From NCBI RefSeq assembly GCF_002075285.3, contig NZ_CP021983.2:2160001-2192000 (forward strand): a stretch of 32,000 nucleotides of DNA. Reading direction: 5' to 3'. Shown piece by piece: positions 13,307-19,846 of this stretch. Each line of letters starts with the position of its first letter. Position 1 is the stretch's first letter. The position numbers were made by a program, and so were the translations under genes. The stretch is from Halomicronema hongdechloris C2206. Its GTDB lineage: Bacteria; Cyanobacteriota; Cyanobacteriia; Phormidesmidales; Phormidesmidaceae. The notes beneath the pieces are model-generated. The model made no database searches and was not told the origin of the DNA. It saw only the letters and a list, made by a program, of their open reading frames with translations.

Positions 13307-14208
13307 CCGCTGGCCCAGAAACGCCCGCCACCCCAGCCCCAACCAGGTCCTCAGCGCCCGGAGAAGTTCCTCTCCACCACCTCCGTTGCACATCGTGGTG
13401 GTGGGCCATCGCCGTGATCTGGACCTTACCCACGGCGGGGTTGCTGATCAGCTCCTTTCGCCAGGCCGAAAGCCCTGACCCGCAGCGGCTGGGGAGCGGT
13501 ATTTCAACCTCCCCTGGATCTGGGCCAGTTTCACCTGGGTAACTACCAGGCGGTACTCACCAGCGAGGGCATGGGGCAGGCCTTCTTGAACAGCCTGATC
13601 ATCTCGATTCCGGCCACGGTGATGCCCATCGCCATCGCCACCTTTGCCGCCTATGCCCTGGCCTGGATGCGTTTCCCGGGGCGGCAGCTGTTGTTTGTCA
13701 TGGTGGTGGGGCTGCTGGTAGTGCCCCTGCAGATGACCTTGATTCCGGTGTTGCGCACCTACAATCAGCTGGGCCTGGCCGGCACCTTTCTGGGGGTGTG
13801 GCTGGCCCACACCGGCTATGGCATGCCCCTGGGCATCTATCTGCTGCGCAACTACATCGGCACATTGCCCCGGGATCTGATCGAGGCGGCGGCGGTGGAT
13901 GGGGCCTCCCACCTGAAGATCTTCACCCGCATCGTGGTGCCCCTGTCTACCCCTGCGATCGCATCCTTTGCCGTCTTCCAGTTTCTCTGGGTCTGGAACG
14001 ACCTGCTAGTGGCCCTGGTCTAACCTGGGCGGCAACCAAGACGTCGCCCGTCACCCTGGTGCTGCGCAACCTGGTGGGTGATCGGGGCCAAGACTGGCAT
14101 CTGCTCACCGCCGGGGCCTTCATCTCCATGGTGGTGCCCCTGATAGTCTTCTTCGCCCTGCAGCGATACTTCGTGCGGGGCTTATTGGCCGGTTCAGTGA
14201 AGGGATAA
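13303..14208 (+). pseudogene. Sugar ABC transporter permease (MalG/UgpE-type), multiply frameshifted
   Basis: The protein is recoverable only by changing frame: LHIVVVG (frame 0) / AIAVIWTLPTAGLLISSFRQAE (frame 1) / ALTRSGW..QPPLDLGQFHLGNYQAVLTSEGMGQAF...EAAAVDGASHLKIF...WNDLLVALV (frame 2, stop 14021) / YLGGNQ (frame 0) / PVTLVLRNLVGDRGQDW...VKG (frame 1). Confidence 0.7.
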
Positions 14209-15316
14209 TGGCAACCATCGTCTTCGAGCAAGTCACCAAGATCTACGACAACGGGCTTCGTCGCCGTCAAAGACCTGAACCTAGACATCGGCGACGATGA
14301 ATTTCTAGTGCTGGTGGGTCCTCCCGGCTGCGGGCAAAACCACCTCCCTGCGCATGCTGGCCGGGCTGGAGTCCATCAGCCAGGGCCATATCTACATCGA
14401 CGGTCGCCGGGTCAACCAGTTGTCGCCGCGGGAACGGGACATTGCCATGGTGTTTCAGTCCTACGCCCTCTACCCCCATATGAGCGTCTTCGAAAACATG
14501 GCCTTCAGCCTGGAGCTGCAGGGCATGGCCAAGGGCGACATTCGGCAGCGAGTCCAGGCCGCCGCTGCCCAGCTGGGCATCGAAGAGCTGCTGGATCGCA
14601 AGCCCAAACAACTCTCCGGCGGTCAACGCCAGCGGGTGGCCGTGGGCCGGGCCATCGTCCGCGACCCTGCCGCCTTTCTCATGGATGAGCCCCTGTCTAA
14701 CCTGGATGCCAAACTGCGGGTGCAGGCCCGGGCCGAACTGAGTAAGCTGCACAAGAAACTGGGCACCACCTTCATCTACGTCACCCACGATCAAGTGGAA
14801 GCCATGACCATGGGCAGTCGCATCGCCGTCATGAACCAGGGCATTCTGCAGCAGGTGGATACGCCCCAGGTGCTCTACGAACAGCCCAATAATGTCTTCG
14901 TGGCCGGGTTCATGGGTAGCCCGGCCATGAACTTCTTCCAGGCCACCCTGCAGGCGGAAGCAGACACCCTGATGATCGTCGCCGGGGCCTTGCAAGTGCC
15001 GGTGCCCGCCGACCAGCACAGCCGCTACCGCCCCCACCTGAATACTCCTGTCATCTTCGGCATTCGCCCCGAGAATATCTATACCCCTGAGTTCGCTCCC
15101 CCCCCGGCATCAACCCCGTGCCCGTGCAAGCCGACGTCTGTGTGGTGGAAATGATGGGTCACGAAACCATCGTCTACTTGAAGCCTAGCTGACGGCCATG
15201 AGTTCATCGCCCGGGTCGATCCCCGCTCCCACTTCAAGGCTGGTGACACCGTCCAGGTCTACTTCGACATGAATCGCTTCCATCTGTTTGATCAGGCCTC
15301 AGAACATGTCCTCTAG
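14208..15316 (+). pseudogene. Sugar ABC transporter ATP-binding protein (MalK/UgpC/MsmK-type), multiply frameshifted
   Basis: ATG 14208 overlaps the permease stop (TAATG). Walker A (GPPGCG|KTTS) is split between frames at about 14335. Earlier, YDNG|FVAVKDL is split at about 14256. The signature [14 protein letters not shown] and Walker B FLMDEP are intact. Further shifts lie in a C8 run (15098-15105) and at about 15190. The restored C-terminus ends at TAG 15314-15316. Confidence 0.7.
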
Positions 15317-16278
15317 GCCTGTTTCCCATAGGCCCGCATCGGTTCCTGGATGAAGCGAATGTACAGGTGCCGGAAGGTGGACTTCACCACCCGCGGTAGA
15401 CCAAAATCGATGGGCATCAGCTGATCCGGCAATCGCCAGTCGGTCAGAGCCAGGGCCTCGGGAGCCATGACCGGAAAGCTCAGCTGTTCCCAGGCTGGGC
15501 ACAGTCCTAACCGTATGGATTGGGCCACCGTCGGCACCTGGGCCGGATCTACCCCGAGGATATCCACCAGGGCCCGATCCAGGACGAAGACATCCCGGGC
15601 TGCCCCCAATACCCCCAGCTGCCGTGGCTCGCCGCCACTGGGGCCATTGCCTTCATGGCCGATGATGCCATCGATAATGGTTAGGTCAGGGGCGATCAGG
15701 CGGGCCGTCTCCACCAGCATGGTGCCAAAGCGCTCTACGTCTTTGCCGGCTTCCATATGCCACCAGGCCTTCATCTTGCCAGGCACACAGCCGAATAGGT
15801 TTTTGACTCCTAGGGTCAGAGTCAACTGAGCATGGGATTTCACCTTAGGCAGGTTAATCACCACATCCGCCTGCATGGCTTCTTTAGAGACTCGCAAATG
15901 ACCGAAGTCGCTGCCTTGGGTGTGGTAACGCTGACCGTGGAGCTCCACGATAGGCATGTCTAATGCTTGGGCTACTGCCAGCAAGCCATTGGCCTTGGCC
16001 ACCCCCCGGGCACTGCCAAAGGCGGGGCTGTCTCCTAAAAAGGGCTGGCCGCCCACCGCCTGAACCTGCTGGGCCACACAATGGACCAGGGCCGGATTGG
16101 TGGTGCACTCCTTAGTGGGACGGGCGCCGGTGAGTAGATTTGGCTTCAGCAAGACTCGATCTCTCGGCTTCACCATGGTGGCCATGCCTCCCAGGGGAGC
16201 CAGCACGGTGTTTAAGTGCCCATGTAGAGCAGCTCGGTCATAGGTATGGGCGCGGGTGAGGCAAACAGGAACCGACAT
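15313..16278 (-). CDS. DUF362 domain-containing protein
   Basis: A 321-aa ORF with DUF362-like blocks (VLLKPNLL..., NLPKVKSHAQLTLTLGVKNLFG, IIDGIIGHEGNGP). Its stop overlaps the ATPase pseudogene stop, as the two genes converge. Confidence 0.8.
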   Translation of the reverse strand: MSVPVCLTRAHTYDRAALHGHLNTVLAPLGGMATMVKPRDRVLLKPNLLTGARPTKECTTNPALVHCVAQQVQAVGGQPFLGDSPAFGSARGVAKANGLLAVAQALDMPIVELHGQRYHTQGSDFGHLRVSKEAMQADVVINLPKVKSHAQLTLTLGVKNLFGCVPGKMKAWWHMEAGKDVERFGTMLVETARLIAPDLTIIDGIIGHEGNGPSGGEPRQLGVLGAARDVFVLDRALVDILGVDPAQVPTVAQSIRLGLCPAWEQLSFPVMAPEALALTDWRLPDQLMPIDFGLPRVVKSTFRHLYIRFIQEPMRAYGKQA

Positions 16279-16320
16279 CAGCGTCTCGGGAAGCAGCTAC
16301 ATCTTGGAGCGTAGCGTGCT

Positions 16321-16397
16321 AAGGAAGGGGAGGCAAGGGAAGTAGGGGAGGTGGAGAGATGGGGAAGTGGGGGAGTGGGAGAGTGGGGGGAAGTAGA
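16321..16397 (-). repeat. Pyrimidine-rich (minus strand) degenerate short-repeat tract in the DUF362 5' leader
   Basis: The plus strand is almost pure purine (AAGGAAGGGGAGGCAAGGGAAGTAGGGGAGGTGGAGAGATGGGGAAGTGGGGGAGTGGGAGAGTGGGGGGAAGTAGAA). The minus strand reads CCCCACT/CCCACTC-type units, like the tract at 1491-1612. Confidence 0.7.
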
Positions 16398-16428
16398 ATG
16401 AGGACAGAGCATCCTTGGGCCCTGGGTA

Positions 16429-17304
16429 GTGCTGACCGCCAATTTAGACAACCAAAGCCATTGGCTGCGAGGCTGTGAGGTGGCAGAGGCGGCAGCTCGC
16501 TTCCTCCTAGAAGAATTTTCTGTGCCAAAGGTGGTGCTGTTTGGGTCTCTGCTGCACCCTAGCATCGTGCGTCAGCACTCCGATATTGATTTGGCCGTGT
16601 GGGGCCTCACTGATGAGCAGTATGATCGGGCCTTAGGGGCTCTGGCAGACCTAACCTCAGAGTTCTGCTTCGATTTGGTCCAAGGGGAGTCGGCTCAACC
16701 TAGCCTCAGCCAAGTGATTGAGCGGGATGGGATTGCCCTGGGATACTCCTCTGCTCCTGTGGTAACTCAACTCAGTAGGGCTTTGCCGTTAGAGCATCTG
16801 CCGATGAAGCGTACCTATGCAGTTTTACGGGGACAACTCGAGCAAGAATTACAGGAACTCGAGGGTCTAGTGCAGAAGACTGAAGCCCTGTTGGCTAAGT
16901 TGCGGGCCACCCAGGATGAAGATTATTTGGGCACAGTTGCGCTAAACCTACACAGTTTCTACTCGGGGGTGGAGCGCATTTTCAAGCAAATCGCGCAGAC
17001 CATCGATGGCGTTGTCCCGGATACGGCCAACTGGCACCGGCAGCTACTGCGGCAGATGGCAGCCCCCGTCTGGCATATCCGTCCTGCGGTGTTGAGAGCT
17101 GACACAGTCACCTGGCTGGAAGATTACTGTTCTTTTCGGCACTTGGTCAGAAATATCTACAGCACTCATCTCAAAGTAGACCGGGTGGAGGCTCTGGCAG
17201 AACGGCTGCCCACCTGTATGGCTTTCCTCAGGGAAGACTTAGAGCATATGATGATTGCCCTGGAGTCCCAACCCCCTTGGGAGTCGAATGGGGAGGAGAC
17301 GTAA
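16429..17304 (+). CDS. Fused nucleotidyltransferase (MNT) + HEPN-like domain protein (module 1)
   Basis: The N-terminal half has NTase motifs (LFGSLLHP...HSDIDLAV). The C-terminal half is paralogous to the two downstream HEPN-like proteins (LHSFYSGVERIF, WHRQLLRQM, FRHLVRNIYSTH). There is no stop between the halves. GTG 16429 directly follows an in-frame TAG. An internal Met lies at 16804. Confidence 0.8.
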   Translation: MLTANLDNQSHWLRGCEVAEAAARFLLEEFSVPKVVLFGSLLHPSIVRQHSDIDLAVWGLTDEQYDRALGALADLTSEFCFDLVQGESAQPSLSQVIERDGIALGYSSAPVVTQLSRALPLEHLPMKRTYAVLRGQLEQELQELEGLVQKTEALLAKLRATQDEDYLGTVALNLHSFYSGVERIFKQIAQTIDGVVPDTANWHRQLLRQMAAPVWHIRPAVLRADTVTWLEDYCSFRHLVRNIYSTHLKVDRVEALAERLPTCMAFLREDLEHMMIALESQPPWESNGEET

Positions 17305-17311
17305 TTCAGGA

Positions 17312-17680
17312 ATGACTGGCCAGTCCTTCGATACGTCTTTACTCGACCGATTGCTCGTGGAGACATGCGATCGCAACGAGGCCGCCCGGCAGCAGGTCCT
17401 TGCCGATGCGATCGCATGGCTGGACGCCCACGCCGCCGGCTTCGGCCTCACCCGCGCCTATCTCTTCGGCTCCCTGATTCGTCCCTATCGATTTTCTCCC
17501 CACTCCGATGTGGACATTGCCGTTGACGCCATCGGAGTTGACGACTTCTTCACCCTCATGGCCGGCCTCTCAGAAGCCCTGGGGCGAGAGGTAGACTTAG
17601 TGGAACTGCCCAAATGCCACTTCGCCGACCGCATCCGCCAACAAGGTCAGCTATGGACCCACCCAGATATGCACTCTTAA
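17312..17680 (+). CDS. Nucleotidyltransferase domain protein (MNT-type, module 2)
   Basis: NTase motifs LFGSLIRP...HSDVDIAV are present. ATG 17312 lies 8 nt after the previous stop. Confidence 0.8.
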   Translation: MTGQSFDTSLLDRLLVETCDRNEAARQQVLADAIAWLDAHAAGFGLTRAYLFGSLIRPYRFSPHSDVDIAVDAIGVDDFFTLMAGLSEALGREVDLVELPKCHFADRIRQQGQLWTHPDMHS

Positions 17681-18129
17681 CCACAGACATTGCGGCCCAG
17701 CAAACCATCATCCATCGCATTTACACCCTGCTGAGGCAACGGGCGGAGGGGCTAACGATCGAGAATCCTGAAAAACTAGAGAGTGTGGCCTATCAGCTCC
17801 ATAACCTCTACGGGGCCATCGAAGAGCTGTTTAAGGTCATCGCCACCTATTTCGAGAACCAGATTACCGATGCCGGGCAGCGGCATAGTCGTCTGCTGCA
17901 GCGCATGAGCCAGCCCGTCCCTGGCGTTCGCCCCGCCATAATCTCAGAGGAGAGCTATCTGCTGCTCAATAGCTTGCGGGCGTTTCGCCACTGCTTTCGC
18001 CATGCCTACGGCGTTCCGATTGACCATAACCAGCTCCTGAGCAACCTTGAGAAAGCCTATGCCCTAGACGCTAAGCTATCAACAGATATCCAAATATTTT
18101 TGAGCACGCTAGAACGCTCCCATGAGTGA
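17653..18129 (+). CDS. HEPN-like partner protein (module 2)
   Basis: Blocks LHNLYGAIEELF, RHSRLLQRM and FRHCFRHAYG are present. ATG 17653 overlaps the MNT gene by 28 nt. Confidence 0.7.
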   Translation: MDPPRYALLTTDIAAQQTIIHRIYTLLRQRAEGLTIENPEKLESVAYQLHNLYGAIEELFKVIATYFENQITDAGQRHSRLLQRMSQPVPGVRPAIISEESYLLLNSLRAFRHCFRHAYGVPIDHNQLLSNLEKAYALDAKLSTDIQIFLSTLERSHE

Positions 18130-18502
18130 GCCCCCTGAGCCGGTTATTGATCCCGCCCATCTGGCCTATTGGCAACGGGCCATGGCCCGGCAGGCACAGA
18201 CTCGTCAGCAGGCGCAAGCGGCTGCCTGGGAAGCCGTGCAGCAGATGGCCGCCTGCCTGCGCCAGGAATTTGGGGCCACCCGGGTAATTGCCTTCGGCTC
18301 CCTAGTGCGCCATCGCTTCACCGACGACTCCGACATTGACCTGGCGGCTGCAGACATCCCCGCCGAGCGCTACTTCGAGGCCGTGGCCCGGGTGAATGAA
18401 TTTAGCCCCCGTTGGGTGGATCTCAAACCCTTAGAAGCGCTGGAGCCTCATTTTCGCCGGCGGGTCCTGTCCACAGGCATTGATATCGATGCGAGAGATT
18501 AG
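18122..18502 (+). CDS. Nucleotidyltransferase domain protein (MNT-type, module 3)
   Basis: NTase motifs AFGSLVRH...DSDIDLAA are present. ATG 18122 overlaps the previous stop (ATGAGTGA). Confidence 0.8.
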   Translation: MSEPPEPVIDPAHLAYWQRAMARQAQTRQQAQAAAWEAVQQMAACLRQEFGATRVIAFGSLVRHRFTDDSDIDLAAADIPAERYFEAVARVNEFSPRWVDLKPLEALEPHFRRRVLSTGIDIDARD

Positions 18503-18998
18503 CCCGGCTGCTATCCGAGACCTGGCCCTCGACATCGAAACCGAGTTGGCTAAATTAGCTCGCCTAGAGCAGGCGATTGCAGCGGTGCAAGCAGAAATCG
18601 CAGCCGATCCAGAGCGGGCATCACTGTTCTATGAGAATTTGGCTCTGAAGCTCCATAACTTTTACACCGGCTGCGAGAAAATCTTGTGCCTCGTAGCGGT
18701 GGAGCTCAATGGCGGCGTGCCGTCGGGGGCTGATTGGCATAAACGCTTATTAGAGCGCATGGGGCAGGCTCGAGAGGGGCGAGCGGCAGTACTAGAGGCC
18801 GAAACCACCCGTCAATTGCAGGAGTTTTTGGGATTTCGGCACATCGTACGCAATCTATATGGGTTCGAGCTCGATACCCAGCGGGTAGCGGCCCTGGTGG
18901 CCAACTATCCTGCTGTCTGGGCCGCCGTGCGCCGTGATGTGCAGAGGTTTGTGCAGTGGTTGCGATCGCTGGCAGACCACCTGGCTAAACTGGAGTAA
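18489..18998 (+). CDS. HEPN-like partner protein (module 3)
   Basis: Blocks LHNFYTGCEKIL, WHKRLLERM and FRHIVRNLYG are present. The start is ATG 18489 or TTG 18480, and either overlaps the MNT gene. Confidence 0.7.
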   Translation: MREISPAAIRDLALDIETELAKLARLEQAIAAVQAEIAADPERASLFYENLALKLHNFYTGCEKILCLVAVELNGGVPSGADWHKRLLERMGQAREGRAAVLEAETTRQLQEFLGFRHIVRNLYGFELDTQRVAALVANYPAVWAAVRRDVQRFVQWLRSLADHLAKLE

Positions 18999-19174
18999 GC
19001 CGACGAAATGATGGTCATGGGTGTTGAATCAAATGGCCACGGCGATGCCAGAGGCTCTGACAATGCTCCAAACCTTGCAGGGTCGCTTCGTTCTAATGGA
19101 CGGTGGTCAACCTCGATTATCCGAGTTCTTCACGTACAATGGCAGCGACGCTCTGCTTGGCTCAGTAATTCACC

Positions 19175-19846
19175 ATGGCTGCCCCTGATCGCCCTAACTT
19201 GGCTCCCTTCATTGACCATACCCTGCTGATACCGACCGCAACCCCAGACCAAGTGGCCCACTACTGCCATGAAGCAGACCGCTTTGGCTTTGCCAGTGTC
19301 TGTGTGTTGCCAGTGCATGTGCGGCAGGCACGAGAGTTATTGCAGGGCAAATCTCCTGCCGTGACGACGGTGATTGGCTTTCCCTTAGGAGCCAATACTT
19401 CGGCGGTGAAACTCTATGAAGCCCAAGAGGCAACTGACCATGGGGCCAGTGAGCTGGACGTGGTGATCAATCTCGGCTGGCTCAAGGCCGGAGAATGCGA
19501 TCGCATCTATAAAGAAATGGCCGCCCTATGCGAAGAAACCGGCCAGTGTATCAAAGCCATCCTAGAGATGGCCCTGCTTAATGACGCCGAACTCAAGCTC
19601 GCCTGCGAGCTCTGTATGGACGCCGGAGTCACCTTCCTCAAAACCAGCACTGGCTGGCAGGGCGGCGCTACGGTCGATGGTGTGCGGCGGCTGCAAGCGA
19701 TCAGCCAAGGTCGTGTGGGCATCAAGGCAGCCGGTGGCATTCGCACTCCAGACCAAGCCTATGCCTTGATCGACGCCGGCGCCACCCGGCTAGGCACCTC
19801 CCGTGGTCCTAGCATTCTGCAGCAACTCAGTGCCCCAGACGAGTGA
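19175..19846 (+). CDS. deoC: Deoxyribose-phosphate aldolase
   Basis: Typical DeoC sequence (IDHTLL, VCV.P, VIGFPLG, the Schiff-base Lys context FLKTSTG, and IKAAGGIR). Confidence 0.9.

Follow-up and report, generated by a model that had tools for sequence, protein, structure and literature searches.

Type VII toxin-antitoxin systems couple HepT, in which the tyrosine of an RX4HXY signature is AMPylated, with MntA, which carries a GSX10DXD signature (PMC7641770). The canonical systems used for comparison here are HepT/MntA of Shewanella (SO_3166/SO_3165), HEPN/MNT of Aphanizomenon flos-aquae and HEPN-MNT of Legionella, where MNT stands for minimal nucleotidyltransferase. A single-chain version, FhepTA (SO_1440), has been described in Shewanella (Yao et al., NAR, March 2026). 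The HEPN domain is toxic on its own but not as part of the whole protein, which modifies its own tyrosine by oligoAMPylation; in addition, the MNT domain impedes dimerisation of the HEPN domain, and a pair of cysteines confers redox control (PMC13000451). FhepTA is a member of the canonical HepT family and has an R-phi-xxxH motif, a hydrophobic linker of 3-5 residues, no internal start codon and a position in a prophage or mobile island (PMC13000451). The concept of a fused MNT-HEPN protein is hence already published and not new. Here we describe three MNT/HEPN modules lying in tandem, the first as a covalent fusion, at 16429-18998 of a window from Halomicronema hongdechloris C2206 (the window being the whole stretch of 32,000 nucleotides analysed). 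The locus is of a known kind, type VII-like and built from curated Pfam families, and is an uncharacterised variant within an otherwise ordinary toxin-antitoxin-like cluster. The catalytic signature of the first and third modules is its one real deviation from that kind.

Five open reading frames (ORFs), all on the + strand, make up the three modules, and in each module the minimal nucleotidyltransferase comes first and is followed by a helical domain of ~160 aa. The original prediction, made from the letters of the window, had listed the tandem modules, their motifs and overlaps, the 291-aa fusion and an internal Met at 16804 where split homologues begin. A check of ORFs and motifs found every one of these in place, the Met being Met126, exactly at that point. 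The features are as follows.

16429..17304, + strand: module 1 (M1), MNT-HEPN fusion, XM38_020420, 291 aa, GTG start, no internal stop; MNT ~aa 1-105, variable linker ~aa 106-125, HepT-like_2 HEPN aa 126-291
16543..16590, + strand: GS..DxD motif of M1, the nucleotidyltransferase catalytic motif G39-S40-x11-D52-I-D54, with the third Asp, D82, at 16672-16674
16804..16806, + strand: internal in-frame ATG (Met126) of M1, at the MNT/HEPN domain boundary
16948-16962, + strand: LH[SN][FL]Y motif of M1
17032-17058, + strand: [WR]HxxLLxxM motif of M1
17134..17160, + strand: FRHxxR[NH]xY motif of M1, the signature F236-R-H-L-V-R-N242-I-Y244
17312..17680, + strand: module 2 (M2) MNT nucleotidyltransferase, 122 aa from ATG 17312
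17468-17515, + strand: GS..DxD motif of M2
17653..18129, + strand: M2 HepT-like_2 HEPN protein, XM38_020440, 158 aa
17797-17811, + strand: LH[SN][FL]Y motif of M2
17881-17907, + strand: [WR]HxxLLxxM motif of M2
17983-18009, + strand: FRHxxR[NH]xY motif of M2
18122..18502, + strand: module 3 (M3) MNT nucleotidyltransferase, 126 aa
18296-18340, + strand: GS..DxD motif of M3
18489..18998, + strand: M3 HepT-like_2 HEPN protein, 169 aa
18651-18665, + strand: LH[SN][FL]Y motif of M3
18735-18761, + strand: [WR]HxxLLxxM motif of M3
18834-18860, + strand: FRHxxR[NH]xY motif of M3

The M1 protein is 100% identical to XM38_020420, recorded as a "hypothetical protein" of H. hongdechloris C2206, and the M2 HEPN protein shows 100% identity to its own C2206 record. 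The start of the M2 MNT is ambiguous between TTG 17255, ATG 17288 and ATG 17312, of which the last is the most likely because the orthologues measure 117-122 aa; it leaves a gap of 7 nt after the M1 stop. Stops and starts overlap by 28 nt at 17653/17680, by 8 nt at 18122/18129 and by 14 nt at 18489/18502, and a promoter and terminator scan found no terminator-like site within 16150-19300. Hence the region is probably one operon with three independent MNT/HEPN modules. The same scan found three promoter-like sites where shuffles predict 1.4, which is compatible with one operon and adds nothing further. A consistent Shine-Dalgarno signal was seen neither upstream of the internal ATG nor upstream of the other starts, which is uninformative for a cyanobacterium, and Rfam and tRNA scans of the window returned no matches. 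A small MNT gene directly upstream of, and overlapping, a HEPN gene of ~130-170 aa is also the arrangement found in HepT/MntA.

The reading of the N-terminal parts as nucleotidyltransferases was borne out by profile searches. All three match Pfam PF18765 (Polbeta, minimal nucleotidyltransferase) above its gathering cutoff of 26.9 bits, with 28.7 bits for M1 (aa 26-104), 33.3 for M2 and 30.0 for M3, and the M3 MNT also matches PF01909 at 27.3 bits. Their sole meaningful NCBIfam match, below threshold, is MntA_antitoxin (NF047752), at 28.2, 41.0 and 40.3 bits for M1, M2 and M3, respectively. Pairwise BLASTP relates the three MNT domains to one another with E-values of 1e-6 to 1e-12 and 30-40% identity. 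Each retains the GS...DxD centre of HepT/MntA with complete catalytic residues. The spacing in M3 (GSx10DID) agrees exactly with the type VII signature, whereas M1 (GSx11DID) and M2 (GSx11DVD) have 11 residues, unlike HepT/MntA. Of the 61 fused homologues of M1, all have G39, S40, D52 and D54, and 60 have D82; the enzyme half is therefore under selection for catalysis. A full-length profile of M1 relatives searched against the PDB had MntA as its only match (5yep_A, E 3e-7), and Foldseek aligned the N-domain of M1 with MNT antitoxins (8xeo, 7ae9_G, 7bxo_E, 1wot and 1no5) at a template modelling (TM) score, normalised to the target, of up to 0.75. Taken together, the profiles and sequence comparisons support the assignment of the N-terminal parts to the MNT-type nucleotidyltransferases.

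For the C-terminal parts a divergent HEPN-like family had been suggested, with a profile search named beforehand as the test of the fold. All three domains match Pfam PF20797 "HepT-like_2", of the HEPN clan, with 103 (M1), 93.6 (M2) and 110.6 (M3) bits against a gathering cutoff of 27 bits (E 1e-27 to 5e-32), and each match covers nearly the full 110-position profile (aa 170-274 in M1). The HEPN part of the suggestion was thus upheld, whereas the family is one that Pfam had already curated; with respect to PF20797 and PF18765 the window proteins are ordinary members, with nothing structural that is different. Some NCBI records call PF20797 members 'ribonuclease toxin HepT-like protein'. In this family membership the modules depart from HepT/MntA, whose HEPN proteins fall in DUF86/PF01934 or PF05168. 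NCBIfam HepT_toxin (NF047751) matched M3 only, at 15.1 bits over aa 98-138 including the motif, and neither M1 nor M2. Among themselves the three helical domains are similar far beyond chance, with pairwise BLASTP E-values of 1e-17 to 1e-27 and 28-39% identity.

AlphaFold2 models, computed with homologue alignments as input, reached a predicted local distance difference test score (pLDDT) of 92.4 and a predicted TM score (pTM) of 0.72 for full-length M1, and a pLDDT of 92.8 and a pTM of 0.88 for the HEPN domain alone. The latter is modelled with helices at 2-36, 40-68, 77-86, 99-116 and 125-155, the signature motif sitting at the C-terminus of helix 99-116 and its tyrosine being in the next loop, much as HepT/MntA has an Arg-containing helix and then a loop tyrosine at R+7. 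A long N-terminal helix of ~35 aa is an extra feature here in comparison to HepT/MntA. When the C-domain was compared with the PDB by Foldseek, the matches were mostly HEPN toxins of MNT/HEPN systems (7bxo_G, 6m6u_D, 7ae8, 8xdj, 8yuf, 1ylm, 1wwp and 2hsb), and the predicted folds of both domains resemble solved MNT and HEPN chains. Profile matches and predicted structure together support the view that the C-terminal parts are HEPN-superfamily domains.

The three copies of the signature motif align without gaps as FRHLVRNIY (M1), FRHCFRHAY (M2) and FRHIVRNLY (M3). Only M2 has the RX4HXY that defines type VII membership, in full and as in HepT/MntA; M1 and M3 read RX4NXY, with Asn at the canonical His position. 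A profile-profile alignment of the two subfamilies places the Asn of M1/M3 exactly on the His of the M2 subfamily, with 99.95% probability. An Rx4-6H motif that is only loosely kept had been proposed for all three modules, but that reading mixed the registers; the 'RNIYSTH' (Rx5H) read in M1 is a register error, since His247 is not conserved and its column is Asn in 45/61 fused homologues.

The M2 subfamily has the motif FRHFFRHAY, with Arg-His at those positions in 113/120 relatives. In the alignment of the M1/M3 type, which holds 115 relatives, R237 and H238 are invariant, N242 is present in 106 and Y244 in 114. The Asn is found in all 54 of the split two-gene members; being equally common to split pairs, it is not caused by fusion. 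Among more divergent fused representatives the site is Asn in nine and His in eight, and this alternation at a single site, seen also between the split subfamilies, suggests that the two states serve one function. Published descriptions of this His/Asn dichotomy in PF20797, and of its fused clade, appear to be lacking from the literature searched. Across the subfamilies the Phe, the Arg and the His that follows it do not vary, and the Tyr at R+7 is almost always conserved. By sequence, this Tyr coincides with the AMPylated Tyr of the published RX4HXY signature (PMC7641770), which agrees with the earlier proposal of it as a candidate modification site. Four further polar residues, H175, Y178, E182 and H203 in M1 numbering, are invariant or nearly so among relatives.

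HEPN motifs usually have N, D or H directly after the Arg (PMC3710099). The M1/M3 family accordingly reads R-H-x-x-x-N where the classic HEPN motif reads R-N-x-x-x-H, the i+1 and i+5 positions being on the same helical face, and we infer that in the Asn-type modules His238 may take over from the canonical His. The invariant His right after the Arg, like the Asn, separates M1 and M3 from HepT/MntA. Fused proteins with the full RX4HXY (for example FRHFFRHAY) also exist (P0316, P0363, P0260, P0308, P0320, P0353 and P0369). A third subfamily has the motif FRHFARYYF, with Tyr in place of the His and Phe in place of the usual Tyr, so its AMPylation site may differ. It was seen in second MNT+HepT-like_2 pairs that adjoin an Asn-type pair in Desulfobacteraceae / Cytophagia metagenome-assembled genomes (L034 2003-2954 and L057 3369-4230).

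On these grounds, and by analogy with HepT/MntA and FhepTA, we assign a probability of about 0.6 to the following mechanism for three type VII-like modules. The HEPN-like protein of each would be a latent, dimer-dependent ribonuclease (RNase) or a comparable growth inhibitor. The nucleotidyltransferase (NTase) encoded upstream, using ATP and its GS...DxD centre, would add AMP to the conserved loop Tyr that follows the F-R-H-x-x-R-[H/N]-x-Y helix, and the AMP would keep the HEPN partner inactive. In M1 the reaction would take place in cis as self-AMPylation within one polypeptide, possibly together with steric hindrance of HEPN dimerisation as in FhepTA.

Several results weigh against this mechanism. 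One is the Asn (or Ser/Thr) at the catalytic-His site of M1, M3 and most of their relatives, fused and split alike, which makes RNase activity of these two modules doubtful. In the literature searched we found no experimentally characterised PF20797 member. The NCBIfam equivalog models both have a cutoff of 60 bits, and none of the three MNT parts reaches it for MntA_antitoxin and none of the modules for HepT_toxin. A phmmer search of M1 against the PDB found no match at all, and two profiles built from HEPN-domain alignments retrieved no HEPN chain from the PDB, their matches being confined to designed coiled coils and HACE1 (E > 0.0009); in this lack of a sequence-profile match to solved HepTs, as in the equivalog scores, the modules are unlike HepT/MntA. 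Because there is no such sequence link, the HEPN assignment rests on Pfam, the weak NCBIfam match and fold similarity. The C-domain Foldseek matches had probabilities of 0.95-1.0 and TM scores of 0.46-0.71 but E-values of only 0.04-0.4, with designed helical bundles also listed, and in view of these weak E-values and of profiles that miss the solved HepTs, the fold evidence is supportive rather than decisive. Finally, NTase-fused HEPN domains typically lose their RNase motif and act as substrate-binding domains (Anantharaman et al. 2013; PMC3710099).

This last point leads to the strongest of the alternatives, one that we nevertheless consider unlikely, namely that the HEPN-like domain of M1 and M3, perhaps of the whole family, is the substrate-binding or regulatory subunit of a domesticated NTase that modifies some other target, with no toxin involved. 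Kanamycin nucleotidyltransferase (KNTase), GlnE and the original 'two-protein nucleotidyltransferase' reading of HI0073/HI0074 provide precedents, and M1 shares with KNTase/ANT(4'), GlnE/GlnD and DUF4037 an NTase followed by a helical HEPN-superfamily domain in one chain with Rx4-6H partly lost. The replacement of the canonical His by Asn, Ser or Thr in most M1/M3 relatives would fit such a role, as would the strict conservation of the NTase catalytic residues and the chromosomal location of the fused genes, which stand alone and do not occur in phages; H175, Y178, E182 and H203 could form a binding site. The Asn of the split members, however, shows that the altered motif did not come with fusion, and the Arg, the adjacent His and the Tyr, retained here in contrast to NTases with a substrate-binding HEPN domain, suggest, together with the His/Asn alternation, that the members share a function. 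The full-length M1 model moreover superposes poorly on KNTase/ANT(4') (ANT(4')-IIb, TM ~0.3), and the variable genomic contexts of the family resemble those of mobile toxin-antitoxin modules.

The distinction matters beyond this locus. If Asn-type HepT-like_2 proteins are toxic RNases, the HEPN 'Rx4-6H' rule needs widening to a neighbouring-His arrangement, and this would affect the prediction of active and inactive HEPN toxins across thousands of genomes. If they are not toxic, the family would clearly exemplify 'domesticated' MNT/HEPN pairs that are split and not fused.

The modules had been called paralogous. They do share their families, but they belong to different subfamilies, and a recent tandem duplication was rejected: mutual identity is low (28-39% in the HEPN and 30-40% in the nucleotidyltransferase domains), and M1 and M2 are closer to solitary relatives elsewhere. 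The relatives of M1 are fused and ~58-60% identical, those of M2 are lone MNT+HEPN pairs with a 19-nt overlap and 60-65% identity, and M3 groups loosely with split Asn-type relatives. For these reasons the array is an accretion of distinct subfamilies. With a His-type pair, an Asn-type pair and an Asn-type fusion next to one another, it provides a natural test set for comparing cognate with cross neutralisation.

When one genome per species was scanned for the pattern, tblastn confirmed at least 573 loci among at least 600 pattern matches, in Cyanobacteria, Chloroflexota, Desulfobacterota, Firmicutes and other phyla, and the family formed 923 clusters at E <= 1e-10. We inspected the neighbourhoods of the ~80 best species-representative loci out of the at least 573. 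An MNT was directly upstream of the HEPN gene or fused to it in 74 of the ~80, most of the others having their upstream flank cut off, and orthologues of M2 also keep the MNT gene immediately upstream. A three-module array did not occur among the ~80 loci, and two pairs were present in only two of them (L034 and L057); the Halomicronema array is thus unusual in number, not different in kind. The family was found on 6 of 72,556 plasmids, and a phage collection contained no family matches.

A further possibility is that the modules act mainly as anti-phage abortive-infection sensors rather than as classical addiction or stress modules, the three subfamilies widening the range of triggers and the fused form being a one-protein switch like CapRel. 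Although compatible with the AMPylation biochemistry set out above, this role seems to us improbable to a slightly greater degree than domestication. The MNT parts match the PADLOC candidate defence family PDC-S09 weakly (E 1e-5 to 3e-9), but the HEPN parts have no PADLOC match. The authors of FhepTA likened fused toxin-antitoxins to CapRel (PMC13000451), and some relatives lie in variable regions beside Uma2 and DUF2281 toxin-antitoxin-like genes. The window itself points the other way, since its neighbouring genes are housekeeping ones (a sugar ATP-binding cassette (ABC) transporter, DUF362 on the opposite strand, deoC, recO and a major facilitator superfamily transporter), no defence genes, integrases or mobile-element marks adjoin the modules, and base composition shows no GC anomaly against the flanks.

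In Microcystis aeruginosa and related metagenome contigs (L002-L005) the fused gene sits in a variable island of glycosyltransferase genes, with small toxin-antitoxin-like genes (a Uma2-family endonuclease and DUF2281) ~600-3500 nt upstream. This context would fit a fused gene that is accessory or mobile there.

The fusion in M1 is genuine. A search with M1 returned 66 clusters of at least 230 aa (most 275-300 aa) that carry both PF18765 and PF20797 at 31-60% identity to M1, besides split relatives sharing 45-57% identity with M1 in the HEPN part. The named members of the fused clusters are all cyanobacterial (Lyngbya, Trichothermofontia, Limnothrix, Microcystis, Chroococcopsis, Geminocystis and Phormidesmis) and include complete genomes of Microcystis and Chroococcopsis. 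An exhaustive representative search added 19 divergent fused representatives, the linker keeps the reading frame and a similar length across the fused clade, and the fused gene was solitary, in unrelated contexts, in all four relatives examined. An assembly or sequencing artefact that hides a stop in an ordinary two-gene pair, for which one might cite the apparent frameshifts in an ABC-transporter permease and ATPase 2-3 kb upstream, is excluded for practical purposes, given the same architecture in these independent assemblies.

How a fused version is controlled had been raised as a question. It is much less open now, since FhepTA provides an experimental precedent, though one from the canonical HepT family (PMC13000451). 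M1 and its homologous clusters resemble FhepTA in having an N-terminal MNT and a C-terminal HEPN in a single chain, closely related split versions, a conserved Tyr next to the motif and conserved Cys residues in the HEPN domain. Unlike FhepTA, M1 belongs to PF20797, reads RX4NXY, has a variable linker of ~20 residues with a Met or start codon conserved at the domain boundary, and is chromosomal and free of mobile-element marks; within its close fused clade, at 45-60% identity, every named member comes from a cyanobacterium.

Within the hypervariable linker of the fused clade one column stands out, with Met in 38/61 and, in the others, Val or a Met 1-3 residues away. In the eight fused genes for which DNA was fetched, an in-frame ATG (seven) or GTG (one) stands at the domain boundary. 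The codon may be left over from the start of the ancestral HEPN gene, it may encode a residue with a structural role, or it may work as an internal start. With a start codon kept there, one gene could yield both a self-neutralising full-length MNT-HEPN protein and, by internal initiation, a free HEPN toxin; if so, a single gene would serve as a toxin-antitoxin, and translation would set the ratio of toxin to antitoxin. The combined proposal, of a dominant Asn-type branch of HepT-like_2 with a rearranged active site, its His shifted by one turn along the same helix face, and of a fused gene that gives two products through the boundary start codon, is a long shot, and we put it forward as speculative.

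In a neighbour-joining tree of the HEPN domains, which was judged unreliable, the fused proteins did not form a single clade. Fused forms carry both His-type and Asn-type motifs, which hints that fusion or fission occurred repeatedly within the family.

Two cysteines of M1 recall, by analogy, the redox-sensitive cysteines of FhepTA. Cys234 (17128-17130) lies three residues before the invariant Arg and is found in 50/61 fused and 11/54 split proteins, Arg being usual in the latter, whereas C263 is common to both groups.

Upstream of the modules, the sugar ABC-transporter genes at 13571-15154 (+) look frameshifted, which reflects either pseudogenes or sequencing errors at homopolymers. In one frame the MalK-like ATPase reads MATIVFEQVTKIYDNG, and it continues in a second and then a third (ORF 14354-15154), with its Walker A motif broken at GCGGGCAAAACC, near 14335, and the second ABC permease (13571-14023) continues in another frame to ~14205. 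Local sequence errors or pseudogenes therefore do exist in the window.

A purine- and G-rich imperfect repeat tract occupies 16337-16396 (+), directly upstream of the M1 start, in the divergent intergenic region between DUF362 (15313-16278, -) and M1. It can be described as the 8-nt unit GGGGAGTG repeated ~6.5 times or as a 25-nt unit repeated ~2.3 times, has a GC skew of ~+0.3, and may be an element of the promoter region or prone to form G-quadruplexes.

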